Below, one piece after another: positions 26,964 to 64,000 of a DNA stretch of 64,000 nucleotides; positions within the stretch are counted from its first letter, which is position 1, and every line of letters starts with the position of its first letter. Made by a program: the position numbers and the translations under genes. Source of the stretch: Methanobacteriota archaeon. GTDB lineage: Archaea; Thermoplasmatota; E2; DHVEG-1. Where the stretch lies: NCBI GenBank assembly GCA_963769885.1, contig CAVYNH010000004.1, positions 75,904 to 139,903 of the forward strand, written 5' to 3'. The notes under the pieces are model-generated. The model did not search any database. It was not told the DNA's origin and saw only the letters and a program-made list of their open reading frames with translations.

Positions 26964-29900
26964 CTACAGGCCGCTGACGCTGAACACAAACGCGGAGACG
27001 AGATGATGCTGGTCGCTGTCGATGAGGACGTTCCCCTGCTGGTCGCAGAATGCCGCATAGACCCGATATTGCCCATTCCCATGTCTGAGGTCATCGGTTT
27101 TCACAAGGCCATGGAAGATGCTGTCAAGGGCCAACAGCCCGCCGCTTTGAATGAGCCGCGGGGTTTGCTCGTCAACCGCCTTCGTATCCAGCATCCATTG
27201 TCCAGTCCGCGGGTCCTGGAACTCCACCTGGATCAGGAGGTAGCCCCGGATGTCCGTGATCCCAGTGTTCTTGATCTTCGACTGGTTCCGGCACTGCACG
27301 ACCAACCGAGGCTGGCATCCAATCCCCTGGAACTCATAGGAGGAGATAGCGACGTATTCATTCCCGGTCGGCGTGGTCCCGCTGATGTCCCTGCTGCTAC
27401 GTAGGCAGAGTTTTGTCACTCCGATCCGATTGATCCAGCCGAGCCCCTGGCTGTTGAGGGAGAGATCGTTGAACCCGTTGACGAAGTTATTAGTGTTGAA
27501 CTGCCCGCCGTTCCCTGAATACAGGCTCTTGTCGTAATCCGTGACGATGAGAGGATTATGGGGATAGGTCGGCTGTCCGTTCTGGACCGTGATCAGGAAG
27601 TCTGTCGTCGAGTAGTCACCCATTTTATAGAGGCCTAGTGTGGCGGCGTCGATGATGGCGTTCGACGGGATTCGTGTCGTGTCGAAGAAGAGGAATCCTC
27701 GGTAAAGGGAGTATGGTCCGAACGGTGGATTGAATTTTTGCCCGATGAGGATGGAGGCGCCAGTGTTGTCGACGGTGCCTCGGGTGCTTGTCCACGCGGT
27801 GTTGTAATTCGTGTTCGAGTTGTAGATATAGCCATCCGTTGCTTGGGAGTAGAGCGTGATGCTGGGATCGACCTCGGGGAATGCGTCGGTCAGTTCAATG
27901 ACCTCTCCTTTGGTGTACGAGGTTTTGAGCGTACCGACGCTAAGGGTCGCATGGGCGGCGATGTCGAAGTAGAATCCGGTCGCGGTTTGCTCGTTGCCGA
28001 GGTTATCGACGGCCCTGACGCTCACGGGATATCGCCCGGTGAGCCAGGTGTCGTTGAAGTAGCACTCGTATCTGTTCGGGACGCCAGTGACGAGGGTCAT
28101 TGGGATCTGTGTTTCTTTCATTTGTTGGGATTGGTTCGGTAACTGGATTGCTGCTGTTGCTGCCTTCACGCCGCTGATGTTATCCATGATGGTGGCTTGG
28201 ATGTGGATTTGTGAGCCGAAGCCACTCAGTGAGGGCGTGACCAAGACTGACGTGATGTACGGTCCGTCGGCGTCGAACGTGGCATGGTGGGTCTCGGTGG
28301 AGCTTTGATTGCCCTGGATGTCGATGGCGTGGGCGGAGAAGGTGTAGGTGCCGGAGAGTCCGGTGAAGGTGTGGGCGAGCTTGTGGACGCTGTTGTTGTA
28401 GGAGGCTTGGATTTCTTCCCAGCTTAATGCCCTGGCGTAGAGCTGCGGCTCGTCGAGGAGGCCGCGGAAATGGTGGTACTCCGCCGTGTTCTCTTCTGAG
28501 AGGCAGGTCTCCTGGTTGTTTGTGATGTCGCGGACGGTGCCGGTGGTGCTCTGGTCGAATTCGCCGTCGACGTAGAGTCGAAGCTCGGTGCCCTGCCGGA
28601 CGTAGGCGATGTGATGCCATGCCTCGGCGGTGATGGGGATGGTTCCGGTGAGGCTGGTGGTTTGGCCTGGGAGTGATCCTTGCGAGGTGAAGATGCGTGC
28701 GTATGAATTGGAGATGCCGCAGTAGTATCCCTGGCCGGTGGCTTCAGGCTGGTTGCTCAGGATGATGCGGATGCTTGGGGGCTCGAAGGAGACGGGGACG
28801 TTCACCCACGTCATGAAGGTGAAGTCGCCTGTTCCTAAGTTCAGGCTAGGGTCTTTTCCGCAGTGGACCGCATCGTCGATGCCGTCAAAGTCTAATGCCT
28901 TTCCGAATTTCCCGGTGACAATATCGGATGGCCCAAGGCCTCCCCAGAAGACCCCGTTGTTGTGATACGTCGAGTCGTCAATCACACTGGTATCGTTGTA
29001 GTCGTCCATGGGCCAGTAGCCGCGGAGGGTTCTGTTCCAGTCGATGAACGCCGCTGTCTGGAGGCCGTCCTCGACGGTGGCGTTCACTTGTGCCCAGCTC
29101 TGGTTGATCATCGCGTTATCTGGCGGTGTGGGCGGGACAAAGTAGATGATGGGGGTGGGCGTGACCGTGAAGTTGAACTCGTTTGAGTAGTTGGTGTTGT
29201 TCGCGTTGTCGACGGCCCATACCCGGCCTCTGTATTCGCCGCTCTGCTGGGTGTCGGAGAAGGTGAGGAAGTAGCTGTCGTTGATGATGTGGGTCATGGG
29301 GTATTCAGCCGTCGAGTTGTCGGGGGCGGTGATGTTGACCCAGGCGGTGTTGATGCCGCTGTCGTTGTCGGCGATCACTGCCGCTATTGAGGCGTTCATG
29401 CCGACGCCGACGACTTCCGGCGTGACGTCGAGGTACGTGATCTTCGGCGGGGTCATCTCGAAGGTGATGTTGAGCTGTTTTGTTATGGAGTGGAGTTGGT
29501 GTGTATCATCGGTCACGGTCAGCGTGACGTTGTATTGGCCTACGTTTTCATAGAAGTGGGTCACGTTTCGACCATTGGTGATGTTTCCATCCCCGAAATT
29601 CCACGTCCAATCGGTGATATGGAGGCCGTCGCAGGCGGCCGAGGTGTCATTGAAGACGATGGGGTAATCCGGGTTAACGTAGGGGTAGTTCGGGACGCTG
29701 AGGTTGTAGCTAACGTTGAGCGGCATGACCGAGACGTTGACTGAAATCTCCTCTATGTAGTTATTCGCATCCGAGACCCTGAGACGAACGACGTTGTCGT
29801 CTCCGGCTCTTTCGAAGTGATGGACCAGGGTCTGTTCATGGTGGGGGATCAGCTCGTTGTTTATGGTCCACTCATAGTCGACGGGGGCAATCGCGCCGGC

Positions 29901-36727: not shown

Positions 36728-36817
36728 CTTTATCTTTCCTTTTTTAAAAAATGAGTAGTGCTTTATAATGGCTTTGCTGGCTTTGTATATAAATTAGTTA
36801 GAGTTCTATCTTGCACA

Positions 36818-36932
36818 TGAAATAGGGGCTTTGCCCCTATAATCCCATTCTGCCTTCATTCCTCGGCAAGCCTTGGGAGGTCTTGCCGTATCTCACTCGG
36901 CGGTCAGGCACCGCTGCCGGTCGTCAACAATG
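36818..36932 (+). repeat. Copy of the intergenic repeat family with a diverged 3' half
   Basis: tgaaataggggctttgcccctataatcccattctgccttcattcct followed by a different hairpin (ggcaag...cttgcc). Confidence 0.5.
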
Positions 36933-38306
36933 GTTATGTTGTAATGTCGTTGTTGGTCTCAGAGGTAGGATGAGGATTAACCGAAGTTGATCCGTCCGAG
37001 GGATTTGTGGTGCTTGAATGCTTGATCAAATTCTATTCCATAATAGATTCTTCAGAATCTGGGTTACATTTCAAAAATGCGGTCTAAAGCAATAGACGGC
37101 TGAGTCAGTGGTTGTCACAGGAAAATGACTGTTATTTTTTTTGGAGAAAGGAATTTGAATATGAATTTTACCATTGCAGGTTCTGTAAAGCATAGCGTTG
37201 GTTAAATAGCGTTTGAAAATCAGAGTTGGCAAAGAAATATGTTTATTTTTTATTTTGATCTTTAATTACTTGAATCATTTCTAAATTATTTGCTCTAATG
37301 AAATCTGCCATCATAGAATTATTTGTTTCCATGAGTTTAGGAAGTTGAATCAACTCATTTCTAATCATTTCTAACTTACCCTCATACTCTTTTAATTCAG
37401 TCAATATCCCTATATCCCTATCATACGTACTTAAACCAACTTGCCATTGAATAAACATAGAAATAAGAAAACACAAGGTTCCCAATAAAAACCAGGAATA
37501 CCTCCGATGTAAAATAGAAAAATCCTATGAATAATGTTAAAATAGCTGTTGCCAGAATTTTAAATAAAATTATAGTTCTCCAATGTATCATAATTTCAGA
37601 ATATGCTTATGGAATTTAAATATCTATCATATTTTGTCTTTGTCAATTTAGTGTTTGCAAACTGGTTCTGTATAATCTGAGTGTGGTTAATTTAGTCTGT
37701 CAAATTTAATATCTTAAATGCAGTATTAGGGATGTAATTTTACCATTTTGAAAATCTACTCCAATAATACAAAATATCTGGAATGATACAATATAATATA
37801 AATGTGGGTAAGGCGTTCTCCAGACAAACAACAACAGCACGTTCCAGAATCGCTTAAAGAGTTTGAAAACTTTCTCAATAAAAACGGCGATAAGAAGAAA
37901 ATTGAGAAAGCGAAAAAAATATTTTATGAAACCTATCTCGAAAATATTCAAGGGGGGATGAGTCCAGAAGAGGCATTGCAAAAAGCGAAATCGGTTGCAT
38001 TATGCTTTTTGTTCGTACAGTAATCAACGAATCAATTTTAGATATTGTCGAGGAGAGAAGAAAAAGTTGTTGGAAGAAAAACTATTTGAGAAAACACACA
38101 ATACACATAAACATATGAATTCAGAACAAGCAGCAGATATAGCTATAAAATTTGCCAAAACACATGGAACTCCTTTTGTAAAACTAATAGATGCTACGCA
38201 AATTGGAAAAATCTGGTATGTAAAAATAGATGTCGGTGTAATTTCTGTTGATATTCGTACGATAAAAATCGATGATGTCTTAGGAAGAATCATCTCAATA
38301 TCATAA

Positions 38307-38417
38307 TGAAATAAGGGCTTTGCCCCTATGACCCCGTTCCGCCTTCGTTCCTTTTCTTTATAGGACTTACGCTGATGCTTCAGATCGCGCAGTATTCCCT
38401 GCCGCTATTAATAAATC
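38307..38417 (+). repeat. Intact copy of the intergenic repeat family
   Basis: tgaaataagggctttgcccctatgaccccgttccgccttcgttcc...cttacgctgatgcttcagatcgcgcagtattccctgccgctattaataaatc. Confidence 0.65.
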
Positions 38418-38487
38418 GTCAGAACTTCTATTCTGCAAATTGGCACGACACGAAATCTTTAAGGAATGTTGGAACCTTCTCGAAGTC

Positions 38488-38712
38488 ATGTCTGTTGAAG
38501 AGCCACACAGAAGTTGGTTTGAATATTCGAATGTCTTAATCGTTGTGTGGATGGTAGGATTGTTTGTAGCGTTTGGTCTCCTTTCGAACTTCTATGACCA
38601 AGAGAGCATTCTCCAAAACCTTGGTCAAGGCGCGTTCATTGCTCTGTTCGTGGGTGCGGTATTGTATATCGTGAGGTGGATTGCTCTTAGACGAAAGAAG
38701 GCGGTCAGATGA
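38488..38712 (+). CDS. Small membrane protein (hypothetical)
   Basis: Two hydrophobic segments (VLIVVWMVGLFVAFGLL; GAFIALFVGAVLYIV); start guessed at internal ATG of track ORF 38440..38712. Confidence 0.3.
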   Translation: MSVEEPHRSWFEYSNVLIVVWMVGLFVAFGLLSNFYDQESILQNLGQGAFIALFVGAVLYIVRWIALRRKKAVR

Positions 38713-39698
38713 GTATAAGCCGTACATCTCACCTACCCCCTCCTGTGCGTAGAAGAACCCTTGGATATTTAAATCTTTGTTAGGATCATTTTACTATTTA
38801 GGTAAGGAGAGAAAAAATGCAGGGGAAGGGATACCAACCTCGAGTTCAAATCTCACAAGAGCCCTGTTATTTCTCCTAGGATTTCCCTTATAATTCGTTT
38901 ACCCACAGAAGAGGACCTGTCGAAAAGAAAAAATGCTTCTGTCGGGGTTAAGGTTTTCACGCTTCTGTTGAAAATCTTAACAAACACCCCTAAAACGCGG
39001 TTGAATAGTTCGCCTACATTACTCTCTAAAAGCTTCTCTTTTTTTCTTTCCTTTTTTTGAATTTTACAATAGGTGGGTAACAAAGGGGTTCCCCCTCCTG
39101 TTTTTGCAAAAATATCGCCGGAAAATTTGTCAAATTTTTAACACTCTTCCACCCCTCTTTTTTTGTAGTGCCGATTAGGCGTTCTCTTTTAGCGAAAGGA
39201 AATTTTATGAGGATTAGACAACGACCAGTTTCAATTAGATGAGTGTGTCAAAATTACACAACATGCTTCCGAGAATACCCTCTTATCTGACCAATGTTTT
39301 GTCATTATGACATACCCTCTCCTGGTTATTCATTTCGCTTTTTACCGAGGTGTCTAGAAATGACAAGAAATTCAATCAGAAAGCACATTATACTCAAAGA
39401 TTCTAAACAGAATGATTATCTTGAAAAATTCAAAAAGGACGGGGGATTCGGCTCATTTTTACATATGGCTGTTCATTCGATGATGGAAGCAAGCAAAAAA
39501 ATTTACGAAGGGAACCATGCATCAGATGAGATAACTCGGATACAAAATATTGTGTCCAATTCGCATCATTCTATACACGACCAGCTTCTTCCTACCTAAA
39601 AGTGCAAAAGTTCTGTTAAAAATATTTTTTTGTAACTATTAATAATGATTGTATAATAAGATTTATATATTAAAGCGACGTTCGTTGAACGTGAGTAA

Positions 39699-56050: not shown

Positions 56051-56341
56051 ACATTGATCTCCTTAGGAAAAAATAGCGGGTCTTTTTCCGTTGAAAATCG
56101 GAAATGCTATTAACCACCTCGGTTTCGTCACCTATGAGCATTGATGACAGGCAGCCAATCCATACCTGAGGGAGTCCGAACACCGGGGACGCTCACAGGT
56201 AATTTTTTATCCCAGGGATCGTATATAATCCCTACCAGATCGCCGTATGACCTGGTAGGAGGCGTATCAAAAAAATGGACCCACACTACACCACAGTTAG
56301 GCGAACATTTTGCAAACAATCAACCCCTACACGGGGAGGAA

Positions 56342-57493
56342 ATGGTGAATCGACCTTATGTAATTCAACCGTACCTTAATGTAGACGAAAGACCACGAAT
56401 CGATGATAGAAAGCTGATCATCTCGTTGCATGTCGACCGATCTAAATATACCACCCATGAAGAAATATACCATGAGATCACAAAATGGTGGGTCAACATC
56501 AAGAATCGATCCGCAACTACCGTAAAAGACCGCATATGCCATGCACGATCTATGCAACACCACCCGATCTACCCGGTAGACTGGCTGCAATTTGACCCAG
56601 TGCAAATCCTAAACCAATTACTCTACCGGCAGATCCACGAGTATCCAGAACTCGCTAAAAAGACCGGCAGACCAACCTACGGAGTGACACAGTTAAACAA
56701 TCTCTGGAAAGTCGTACGAATGTTCTCAGAGGCGTACGGCGTCGATATTTCGCATTGGGGCTGGACTCCGCCAACTCCGCCAGAGCCACAAGTCAAAATC
56801 GTTCCCAGGCCAGAAACCGTCAACAAACTCATGCACCATTGGTACACGAACGATCGATTCGAGAACGCCCTCATTCGAACGCTGTTAACCGTTGGTTTTC
56901 ACACTGGAGTACGACCAGAGGAACTTGTCATCCTGAAGGTTAAAGATGTGCGCTTTGATGAAGGATATCTCCTCATCCACGAACAAAAAAAGAAATACCG
57001 AGAGCGACAAGTATGGATCGATGAATCGGTTCTCTCAAGCCGCCAACAAAACAGCCTACGAAACTGGGTAATCCTTTGGAGACCGCGAAAAGCCAACGAG
57101 AAATCTGGAGATTTTCTGTTCATCCAGAAGAATGGCACCCCGTTTCCATCTGCAGAAGCCCTTCGCATGTACCTCATGCCTTTCTGCAAGCCAGTATGGC
57201 CTGATTTCAAGCCTAGAATCATGAGGGACTGGAGCGCCATCGCACGGTTGATACGAACAAAAATCGAGACAAAGAAATGGGATACCAGGATCGTGAAAAA
57301 CGATCTCGGGCATAAACATGAGAAAACGACGGAAAGCTATATTCGATTCGCGGAAAACTACTATCGCAGGGACCCATACGATTGGCTACGGGCCGTCCTG
57401 AAATTTCACCCAGACAGCAAACGAATGCTGTCTCTGAGACAGGAATACGGGCCGAGCCAAGAAGTTACCGTAATAGTTCCGCACGCAATGTAG
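56342..57493 (+). CDS. Tyrosine recombinase/integrase adjacent to the 3' end of tRNA-Arg
   Basis: Start set at ATG 56342 preceded by GGGGAGGAA; catalytic region VGFHTGVRPEEL...LGHKHEKTTESYIRF (H...Y); ends 70 nt from the tRNA 3' end. Confidence 0.7.
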   Translation: MVNRPYVIQPYLNVDERPRIDDRKLIISLHVDRSKYTTHEEIYHEITKWWVNIKNRSATTVKDRICHARSMQHHPIYPVDWLQFDPVQILNQLLYRQIHEYPELAKKTGRPTYGVTQLNNLWKVVRMFSEAYGVDISHWGWTPPTPPEPQVKIVPRPETVNKLMHHWYTNDRFENALIRTLLTVGFHTGVRPEELVILKVKDVRFDEGYLLIHEQKKKYRERQVWIDESVLSSRQQNSLRNWVILWRPRKANEKSGDFLFIQKNGTPFPSAEALRMYLMPFCKPVWPDFKPRIMRDWSAIARLIRTKIETKKWDTRIVKNDLGHKHEKTTESYIRFAENYYRRDPYDWLRAVLKFHPDSKRMLSLRQEYGPSQEVTVIVPHAM

Positions 57494-57563
57494 GTACATG
57501 TGGAATCTCAACAACGGGTAAAAACAGGGCTCCTGAGGTACGAGTCCCTCCTGTTGAATTTTA

Positions 57564-57637
57564 CGGACCTGTCGGGATTTGAACCCGAGTCAGAGGCTCC
57601 GGAGGCCTCTGTGATATCCAAGCTACACTACAGGTCC
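57564..57637 (-). tRNA. tRNA-Arg (anticodon CCG)
   Basis: Own fold: acceptor GGACCTG/CAGGTCC, anticodon stem GAGGC/GCCTC with loop CTCCGGA, T-arm TCGGG-TTCAAAT-CCCGA, discriminator G; 74 nt. Confidence 0.75.
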
Positions 57638-62521: not shown

Positions 62522-62642
62522 GTCGGGGTGGCTCAGCCTGGCCAGAGCGCCTGACTCATAAGCGTAGCTTGAAAGGTTCGTACAATCGTTTCGGGCGAGC
62601 GAAGACATCTGGAGGTCGCGGGTTCAACTCCCGCCCCCGACA
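62522..62642 (+). tRNA. Intron-containing tRNA with CAT anticodon (Met or Ile2), ~45-nt intron
   Basis: Acceptor GTCGGGG/CCCCGAC, D-arm GCTC-AGCCTGGCCA-GAGC, anticodon loop CTCATAA, T-arm GCGGG-TTCAACT-CCCGC, discriminator A; ~45 extra nt after the anticodon loop. The 3' anticodon stem has a U-U mismatch in my fold, so the intron boundaries are uncertain. Confidence 0.5.
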
Positions 62643-62737
62643 TGCTATTTATTAGCATGGGTTTCTATCAGGAGAAAAATTCAATTTTTAATTTTTGAAT
62701 TGACGTTCAAATCCCATCGCTTGCACTTCATTCTTTT

Positions 62738-63787
62738 TTAGGGGGATCTGTAGCCGGGGATTTGGATTGAATCCACCCCAAATTCTTGTTCAAAAGATGG
62801 AAATTCATGCTTATTTTCGCGTTTCCAATTAGAGATTAGATTTAGAGTTTTAATACGCTCAAATTCTTTGAGAGTTATACCATCATTAAATGCAATTTCC
62901 TCACTAAAATCATGTTCAAGGACATAAGCAATCTTATCAATTTTTTCATACGAATATCCAATGATATACTCATCTCTTATACCTTTAAACATATCTGGAG
63001 AAGGAACTTCTTCTATTATCTCTGAGGGCACACCAAGAAAACGAGCAAGCTGGCGCACTTGGTTTTTGTAAAGCCCCAAAAGAGGTTCGATAGGAAGATC
63101 ATTTATCCCGTCTTTTACAAACCAGCCTACAAAAGACTCGGACCTATTAGCTGCCCCAATCAAAACCAGGTTTTGCTCTACGGCAAAATTCTCTAAGATT
63201 TTTCTTCTCCAAATGTGTCGAGTATTGAAACTTTTTTCAATAGTTCCAGCTAATGCGCTATAGAGTATTTTCGTAAGCTTATTCTTCGTTGGCTCCCCCT
63301 TCTTTGAAGTCAAAACAAAGGGACTTTCTCTAAAAACCAAGGAATAAATTATTTTAGATGAGAAAACACCCAATCTATTCAGCGCTGGAAAAAACAAGAT
63401 TGTTCTCATTACTGAGGGTTTGTAAGTACCCTGTTCTTTTACTACTGCACTGATATCTCTTATCTCGAAGTGTATACCCAGTTCGTCAGCAACTCTCTGA
63501 GCGTATTGCCTAAATTTCTTCTGACTATCTCGATTATATAAATGGAGCCCGTACACTTTCGAAGGATCCCTCATTGCTTTCACAGCTAATATTGAGACCA
63601 CTGCAGAATCCAACCCTCCACTTATTCCTATGCATATACCATCTTTTCCCGCTTCTGTGACCTTTTGTCGAATAAAATTAACAATGCTATTCGATACCTG
63701 TTCGCAGTCGATAGTCATTGAATCCATAAGACTCATCGGATCAGTCATTTCCTTTCTTTTATCATATTTTTCAACTATTGTGGACAT
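62738..63787 (-). CDS. nadE: NAD+ synthetase-like PP-loop ATPase
   Basis: GISGGLDSAV PP-loop motif; 349-aa track ORF (true start may be internal); AT-rich unlike the adjacent core block. Confidence 0.6.
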   Translation of the reverse strand: MSTIVEKYDKRKEMTDPMSLMDSMTIDCEQVSNSIVNFIRQKVTEAGKDGICIGISGGLDSAVVSILAVKAMRDPSKVYGLHLYNRDSQKKFRQYAQRVADELGIHFEIRDISAVVKEQGTYKPSVMRTILFFPALNRLGVFSSKIIYSLVFRESPFVLTSKKGEPTKNKLTKILYSALAGTIEKSFNTRHIWRRKILENFAVEQNLVLIGAANRSESFVGWFVKDGINDLPIEPLLGLYKNQVRQLARFLGVPSEIIEEVPSPDMFKGIRDEYIIGYSYEKIDKIAYVLEHDFSEEIAFNDGITLKEFERIKTLNLISNWKRENKHEFPSFEQEFGVDSIQIPGYRSP

Positions 63788-63866
63788 AATAATTATTTAT
63801 TGTAATTAGCAGATGGTTTTTTAAATTTAGACTCATCAAATCCAAGGGATTTATACCCATAGGTAC

Positions 63867-63884
63867 CAAATCCCGACAGGTCCG
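63867..63884 (+). repeat. 18-nt exact copy of the tRNA-Arg(CCG) 3' end, inverted relative to the gene at 57564..57637; candidate att-site remnant
   Basis: caaatcccgacaggtccg equals the reverse complement of 57564-57581 (T-loop 3' part, T-stem 3' strand, acceptor 3' strand, discriminator). Confidence 0.5.
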
Positions 63885-64000
63885 CTTCACTCAACTAATG
63901 AAAGAATCTCTTTTTCTCCCTTGGTGTACGACCGATAGAATTGAAGTACGACGATGCTTGCGAATAGCACCATCGTCATTACCGCCCATGGGATCACATA

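Follow-up and report, generated by a model that had tools for sequence, protein, structure and literature searches.

An 18-nt sequence near the right-hand end of the window (the whole stretch of DNA analysed here, 64 kb from a Thermoplasmatota archaeon, with closest genomes at 77–83% aIF2-gamma identity) is an orphan copy of the 3′ end of tRNA-Arg(CCG) that lies inverted with respect to the tRNA gene. We consider this copy, referred to here as fragment B, to be probably (at roughly 60%) an orphan attachment-site (att) relic of the integrase family typified by int1, the tyrosine integrase encoded beside tRNA-Arg(CCG), stranded in foreign DNA downstream of a second tRNA gene with the anticodon CAT. 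Fragment B is composed of the 13-nt att core of this family and 5 nt of T-loop.

An inverted copy of the tRNA-Arg(CCG) 3′ end

~57564–57637, minus strand: tRNA-Arg(CCG), detected by ARAGORN and Rfam
63867–63884, plus strand: fragment B, CAAATCCCGACAGGTCCG, the exact reverse complement of 57564–57581

The 18-mer runs from base 3 of the T-loop through the 3′ strand of the T-stem and the 3′ strand of the acceptor stem to the discriminator base. Given the position at which both programs map tRNA-Arg(CCG), it ends exactly at the tRNA 3′ end. The initial annotation had described this sequence as an 18-bp perfect inverted copy, and we find the same, with 63867–63884 and 57564–57581 forming the sole such pair in the window. 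When up to three mismatches are allowed, only fragment B and tRNA-Arg match the 18-mer within the 64 kb, compared to a chance expectation of 0.02 estimated from shuffled sequences; two matches were obtained in 0 of 100 shuffles. The alignment can be carried past 18 bp, as had been proposed, in that a gapless extension of the inverted pair reaches 29 nt at 83% identity, but the bases gained in this way match at only 6 of 11 positions, which is not significant. The concern that the sequence might be a generic tRNA T-arm/acceptor motif can be set aside, because among the first 80 loci compared the 18-mer occurs solely within the tRNA-Arg(CCG) genes of three relatives (L001–L003), and a proper T-arm is present in the window only in its two real tRNAs.

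Fragment B is located on the 5′ side of tRNA-Arg, not in direct orientation with the tRNA copy, and lies 116 nt from the window end (64000). The two copies bracket the core block in inverted orientation, as originally described. The genes between them encode a nitroreductase, S27ae, S24e, a DUF359 protein, Spt4, RpoE′, S6e, aIF2-gamma, and a PIN protein, and the bracketed segment also encloses an intron-containing tRNA-CAT and a foreign nadE gene. The proposal that the copy is related to an att site has likewise gained support, as its length and boundaries match those of the att cores used by the tyrosine-integrase family that adjoins the tRNA.

The int1 integrase family and its att sites

56141–57493, plus strand: int1, a tyrosine integrase of 450 aa (PF00589, Phage_integrase, E = 7.6e-13)
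57496–57582, plus strand: conserved integrase tail, out of frame (‘..ISTTGKNRAPEVRVPPVEFYGPVGI*’), found by tblastn with P0003 and P0009
38912–38946, plus strand: distal att of the int1 element, directly oriented and disrupted, with a split core
38947–39070, plus strand: family far arm (P′ arm), with the motifs AAAATCTTAACAAAC and CATTACTCTCTAAAA

int1 ends 70 nt from the 3′ end of tRNA-Arg and has 72 homologues at 32–75% identity. Most of these are unnamed metagenomic proteins; the only names among them are “integrase” and “site-specific integrase”, and one of the proteins so named is from a Thermoplasmatota archaeon. The 3′ end of the integrase gene is overlapped or immediately followed by an opposite-strand tRNA gene in 11 homologue loci, and the tRNAs concerned are Arg-CCT, Arg-TCG, Arg-CCG, Ala, Ile, and Glu. 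The conserved protein tail, ‘..SPVExxGPxGI’, results in part from reading the tRNA acceptor and T-stem in antisense, and its TGA stop codon is the antisense of the T-loop. In six loci that have no tRNA gene (L085, L090, L091, L092, L096, and L098), 13, 15, or 21 nt of a tRNA 3′ end come after the tail, and a conserved far arm containing repeated motifs comes next. Two complete elements display both of their att sites: L084 carries a direct repeat of CGGACCTGTCGGG at 895 and 11335, and L086 a direct repeat of CGGACCTATGGGG at 803 and 9655. Each pair is a direct repeat of 13 nt with its end at the T-loop. Across partner and attP-type sites, identity to the tRNA extends over 13–21 nt and is bounded at the T-loop in every case. 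Fragment B, with its 13 + 5 nt, therefore fits a family whose core is 13 nt long, T-loop-bounded, and accompanied by a variable amount of additional identity, and its 18 nt fall within the family range because the partner and attP-type sites carry 13, 15, or 21 nt.

In this architecture, the recombination core consists of the last 13 nt of the target tRNA, namely the 3′ strand of the T-stem, the 3′ strand of the acceptor stem, and the discriminator base, and identity to the tRNA at the core sometimes reaches a few bases into the T-loop. Each integration would rebuild the tRNA beside the integrase, and the core copy that it displaces would come to lie at the other end of the element.

The family core overlaps the last 5–6 codons of the integrase gene. 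At most partner and attP-type sites (L085, L091, L092, L084 at 895, L086 at 803, and 38940–39060 in the window), the integrase frame remains open for 57–64 codons past the core, while it extends for 18 codons in L090, 39 in L096, and 5 in L098. The far-arm frame reads ‘GVKxFxLLLKILTN...LIRRHYS..FFFSF’. At tRNA junctions, the frame stops after 5 codons where the T-loop supplies the TGA. Given the long frame at partner sites and the 5 codons at tRNA junctions, integration would swap the C-terminal tail of the integrase. This swap may represent a 3′-end variant of the SSV-type gene partition. The extension may be functional protein or may just reflect conserved arm-type DNA sites.

On contig Ga0315282_10000093, two family integrases (L085 and L082) share one orientation at a distance of 25.7 kb; a 13-nt Arg(TCG) core and then a far arm lie behind the L085 integrase and a full tRNA behind that of L082, apparently a tandem integration. 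At 11335–11431 of L084, the integrase is followed by 43 nt of the 3′ half of tRNA-Arg(CCG), identical to the tRNA in the window, and then by non-tRNA DNA with another tail-like motif, CTCCTCCTGTTGAGAG. The tRNA at this location seems to have been truncated by a further event.

In the window, the last 13–18 nt of tRNA-Arg (57564–57581) constitute the att core at the integrase-proximal junction. int1 itself is truncated: comparison with five homologues reveals a 29-nt insertion at ~57470–57500 that introduces an in-frame TAG. The surviving out-of-frame tail (57496–57582) reads ‘..PVEFYGPVGI*’, overlaps the att core, and terminates in a TGA that is the antisense of the T-loop. The initial annotation had reasoned from the inverted pair, noting that direct att repeats would be expected for a simple integration. 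Its premise is mistaken, as a disrupted core in direct orientation, followed by the family far arm, is present at 38912–38946. The distal att reads aGGACCTGTCG, then a 22-nt insertion containing a duplication of TGTCG, then GGG; deleting the insertion restores 12 of the 13 core bases next to the far arm. The site is near-identical to the distal site of L084, CGGACCTGTCGGG followed by GTTAAGC, and the far arm aligns with those of L084, L085, L086, L090, L091, and L092 at z = 10–27. Because this partner core and far arm lie at 38.9 kb, the int1 element spans ~38.95–57.56 kb (~18.6 kb), and fragment B is a surplus third site instead of the partner of this element. The int1 element is thus an ordinary decayed example of its kind, with a split distal core, an out-of-frame int1 tail, and a mosaic interior. 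No second family integrase was found in the window by a tblastn-type search.

Base composition varies widely within the 38.9–57.6-kb interval, which is a compositional mosaic. A native-like, high-GC block (GC3 0.75–0.82) occupies 42.4–45.4 kb inside the int1 element, and a very low-GC island at 46.9–53 kb encodes a TIR-domain protein and a second, Xer-like integrase. The DUF7289-HTH-orf125-int1 block has an intermediate GC3 of 0.52–0.65; in composition DUF7289 belongs with the element, although it keeps synteny with tRNA-Arg in the relatives. A degenerate, sense-orientation T-arm-like sequence, CTCGAGTTCAAATCTCACAAGAGCCC, occupies 38838–38863 on the plus strand, 50 nt leftward of the distal att, and matches the 3′ part of tRNA-Arg at ~19 of 26 bases; Rfam detects no tRNA there. 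Directly outside the distal att, ~2.2 kb of DNA (36728–38911) has a GC content of 36% and no ORF of at least 120 aa, and tblastn detected no integrase remnant in this interval.

The conserved block and the surroundings of fragment B

62522–62642, plus strand: intron-containing tRNA with anticodon CAT (Rfam, 50.8 bits; missed by ARAGORN)
62643–62735, plus strand: downstream flank of tRNA-CAT, conserved with L001, L002, and L006
62738–63787, minus strand: nadE (NAD synthase), low-GC, between tRNA-CAT and fragment B
63841–63856, plus strand: palindrome CAAATCC-AA-GGGATTT, a repeat of the T-loop end of the core, located 11 nt left of fragment B
63887–64000, minus strand: 3′ end of an ORF (gene X) truncated by the window edge, with its stop codon 2 nt from fragment B

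tRNA-Arg(CCG) lies on the minus strand at an equal distance from the core genes in six relatives (L001–L004, L008, and L088), and in L088 a family integrase is present at this same tRNA-Arg beside the same core block. The tRNA-CAT gene, whose intron is ~48 nt long, follows the PIN gene on the plus strand in five relatives (L001, L002, L004, L005, and L006), and it closes the block in four of the six relatives with the tRNA-Arg arrangement (L001–L004). Since the intron-containing tRNA-CAT is kept after the PIN gene, the ancestral block was bracketed by two divergent tRNA genes, of which tRNA-CAT is the right-hand boundary and a second integration hotspot. A DUF7289 gene is situated a few kb away on the 3′ side of tRNA-Arg in L001–L003 and at a similar distance in the window. 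No second copy of the 18-mer occurs in the relatives.

The regions downstream of both tRNAs are variable and scar-bearing. Homology with L002 and L006 runs ~75–95 nt past tRNA-CAT and ends at the stop codon of nadE; fragment B lies beyond the end of homology with the relatives, in foreign, low-GC DNA. Within the conserved tRNA-CAT flank, CAGGAGAAAAA is part of the integrase-tail motif CTCCTGTTGA in reverse complement, and a T-arm-like piece, GTTCAAATCCCATCGCTTGCA, lies at 62704–62725. In L001, the last 12 nt of tRNA-CAT and ~100 nt of the flank are directly repeated 1.3 kb apart (11763–11875 and 13060–13170) around a single ORF.

The nadE gene, for which the database-called start probably lies at 63736, has a GC3 of 0.33 compared to 0.66–0.82 in native core genes. 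It shares 87–88% DNA identity with three other metagenomic contigs (L102, L106, and L107; 62774–63757 in the window) across the gene only, with flanks that are all unrelated, which suggests a recent horizontal transfer of the gene by itself. This same comparison discounts the idea that fragment B travelled together with nadE, as the three nadE-sharing contigs match across nothing but the gene. Immediately upstream of nadE, both L102 and L107 carry a T-arm-like motif and a small ribbon-helix-helix-like ORF. An 8-nt repeat, CAAATCCC, present at 62708 and 63867, was considered as a target-site duplication flanking nadE and was rejected because its left copy sits in the flank conserved in L002 and L006. 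The junction containing fragment B and the integrase family are both absent from viral contigs. We likewise rejected an LTR-retroelement primer-binding site, in which 18 nt are complementary to a tRNA 3′ end: the complement of the CCA end is missing, the triplet preceding the complementary strand of the 18-mer being AAG and not TGG, and no reverse transcriptase or LTR occurs among the ORFs neighbouring fragment B.

Neither flank of fragment B resembles an att arm. The right flank was examined as a decayed integrase tail, given that a minus-strand frame reads the tail-like ‘LVE*SGPVGI’, but alignment to integrase tails yields z ≤ 1.6 against shuffled sequences, where the positive control gives z = 4–29 in most comparisons. 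The left flank shows no similarity to a decayed tRNA body or to the far arms of the family (z ≤ 0.5; control z = 10–27). No arm-type motifs are seen around fragment B, and the folding of the surrounding DNA or RNA is not significant (z = −1.3). The few hints of kinship are slight: the core at the 38.9-kb distal site is followed by the same four bases, CTTC, and the extended flank resembles that of tRNA-Arg in L002 (CTTG) at 8 of 11 positions, although the longer flank comparison is marginal (z = 2.5). A search for homologues of gene X with a padded query built on its 37-aa fragment found none.

Origin of fragment B

A second integration or a rearrangement is a plausible origin for fragment B. 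The reading that we favour, an att relic of the int1-type family, would make it a further copy of the displaced type, consisting of the core joined to non-integrase flank. Such a copy would have arisen through site-specific recombination acting on a tRNA-Arg(CCG) gene and would subsequently have been moved to, or imported into, its present location. Its inverted orientation relative to tRNA-Arg would follow from its position on the tRNA-CAT side of two divergent tRNA hotspots. Because neither flank is recognisable as an arm, it is the length and boundaries of the core that argue for fragment B being a recombination product. The site is presumably non-functional today, since int1 is truncated, the partner site is split, and fragment B has no arm motifs. 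If the relic were old enough for both arms to have been lost, mutations might be expected, yet fragment B remains identical to the tRNA at 18 of 18 positions.

The initial annotation had suggested that the core block was inverted by recombination between att sites. Our comparison does not support this, as six relatives have the same arrangement, no second copy of the 18-mer is found in them, and a search for the reciprocal hybrid att found none. The test that had been proposed, comparing the order and orientation of the block among relatives, is informative in part: both are the same in the six relatives that have no second repeat, but a flip between the 18-mers keeps the internal order of the block, so internal synteny by itself is also compatible with a past inversion. 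The DUF7289 gene on the left is collinear with the relatives as well, but it is element-like in composition, and the other outer flanks of the relatives are not conserved. A more specific version of the inversion, in which an in-situ event resembling that of TKV2/TKV3 swapped the distal ends of related elements at the divergent tRNA-Arg(−) and tRNA-CAT(+) genes, seems unlikely to us, though it explains several features. Such a swap, whether by homologous or integrase-catalysed recombination, would place an Arg-type distal core on the tRNA-CAT side, exactly where fragment B is found; fragment B has the position and strand that the distal att of a tRNA-CAT(+)-attached island would have, and the succession of tRNA-CAT, cargo, and distal core parallels L001, whose distal core is CAT-type. 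The shared CTTC and the resemblance to the L002 tRNA-Arg flank agree with this account, and element-partner swap inversions have precedents in Thermococcales (PMC5495485, PMC8371274). However, the shared flank amounts to just 4 nt and its extension is marginal, DUF7289 is collinear with tRNA-Arg in L001–L003 as it is in the window, and the left side of tRNA-Arg bears an Arg-type distal site with a proper far arm. The reciprocal CAT-type core, CCGCCCCCGACA, is absent from the left of tRNA-Arg; the only 12/13 match, at 29318–29330, lies inside the Ig-like domain of an intact 1954-aa gene and was dismissed as chance.

A different possibility is that both inverted cores are live and that the 6.3-kb segment between them, which carries tRNA-Arg, ribosomal protein genes, spt4, rpoE′, aIF2-gamma, tRNA-CAT, and nadE, is an integrase-invertible cassette that leaves tRNA-Arg intact in either orientation. 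The 18-nt inverted identity does span the full family core, a flip would regenerate an intact tRNA-Arg, and IntpTN3, an archaeal integrase, inverts DNA lying between inverted att sites. In the flipped state, one junction would read from the integrase tail through CGGACCTGTCGGGATTTG into GTACCTATGGG and the other from the body of tRNA-Arg through CAAATCCCGACAGGTCCG into CTTCACTCAAC. We regard such a cassette as very improbable, given that int1 has lost its conserved tail, that fragment B has no arm-type motifs, that the window holds no other integrase of this family, and that the flipped state occurs in no relative. Among the family loci scanned, the only candidate for another inverted surplus copy is a 12/13 match in L097, which has no arm homology and looks like chance (~0.5 expected over all loci scanned). 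It is hardly more probable that the cores function for an integrase supplied in trans by a superinfecting element, which would flip the 6.3-kb cassette, or that they record a recent inversion of this type. A chance similarity or an assembly artefact is barely credible: the window is strongly mosaic in composition, but 0.02 matches are expected even with three mismatches, the limits of the copy are those of the tRNA 3′ end and of the family core, no assembler would be misled by a repeat of just 18 nt, and the internal gene order is that of six relatives. Weighed against these accounts, the relic of an int1-type att site remains our preferred explanation.

The main use of the finding lies in annotation, where tRNA-Arg(CCG) and the neighbouring tRNA-CAT can be marked as integration hotspots, the GC-rich core block appears to be ancestral and, in its internal order, without rearrangement, and the limits of the decayed ~18.6-kb element become easier to place. 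Its wider value lies in a metagenome-only Thermoplasmatota integrase family in which the T-loop-bounded att core overlaps the 3′ terminus of the integrase gene itself, which may interest specialists in archaeal mobile elements. Should an integrase acting in trans prove to flip the cassette, or should the cores prove to record a recent flip, integrase-driven chromosome flipping would be extended from Thermococcales to mesophilic, uncultured Thermoplasmatota, and an active inverted pair would represent integrase-driven inversion of essential genes outside Thermococcales.

This kind of feature is familiar, and the novelty is confined to details of the integrase family. Fragment B resembles the attR/attB-type partial tRNA copies associated with archaeal SSV-type and pNOB8-type elements and with bacterial genomic islands in that it is a short, tRNA-terminal copy of a tRNA 3′ end, a cognate tyrosine integrase adjoins the intact tRNA, and the core boundaries match the proven direct-repeat pairs of the family. 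Unlike those copies, it is inverted, lies 5′ of the tRNA, is surplus to a direct pair, and has no recognisable arm on either side. The family as a whole recalls the “suicidal” SSV-type integrases, in which attP lies inside the int ORF and integration divides the gene into int(N) and int(C) parts (PMC7253208, PMC8371274): in both, the att core falls within the int reading frame, so that integration would alter the coding end. The int1-family core, in contrast, lies at the extreme 3′ end of the gene, so that just a ~60-codon tail would be lost and the catalytic domain would stay intact, and the hosts are uncultured mesophilic Thermoplasmatota. The closest parallel to the bracketed segment is provided by the TKV2/TKV3 inversion in Thermococcus kodakarensis and the inversions catalysed by IntpTN3 between inverted att/tRNA sites (PMC5495485, PMC8371274), where, as here, opposed tRNA genes with elements bracket a chromosomal segment that has inverted att-derived repeats at its borders. 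Those segments measure 70–140 kb compared to 6.3 kb in the window, where neither a reciprocal hybrid att nor a break in synteny with relatives was found and the resident integrase is damaged.
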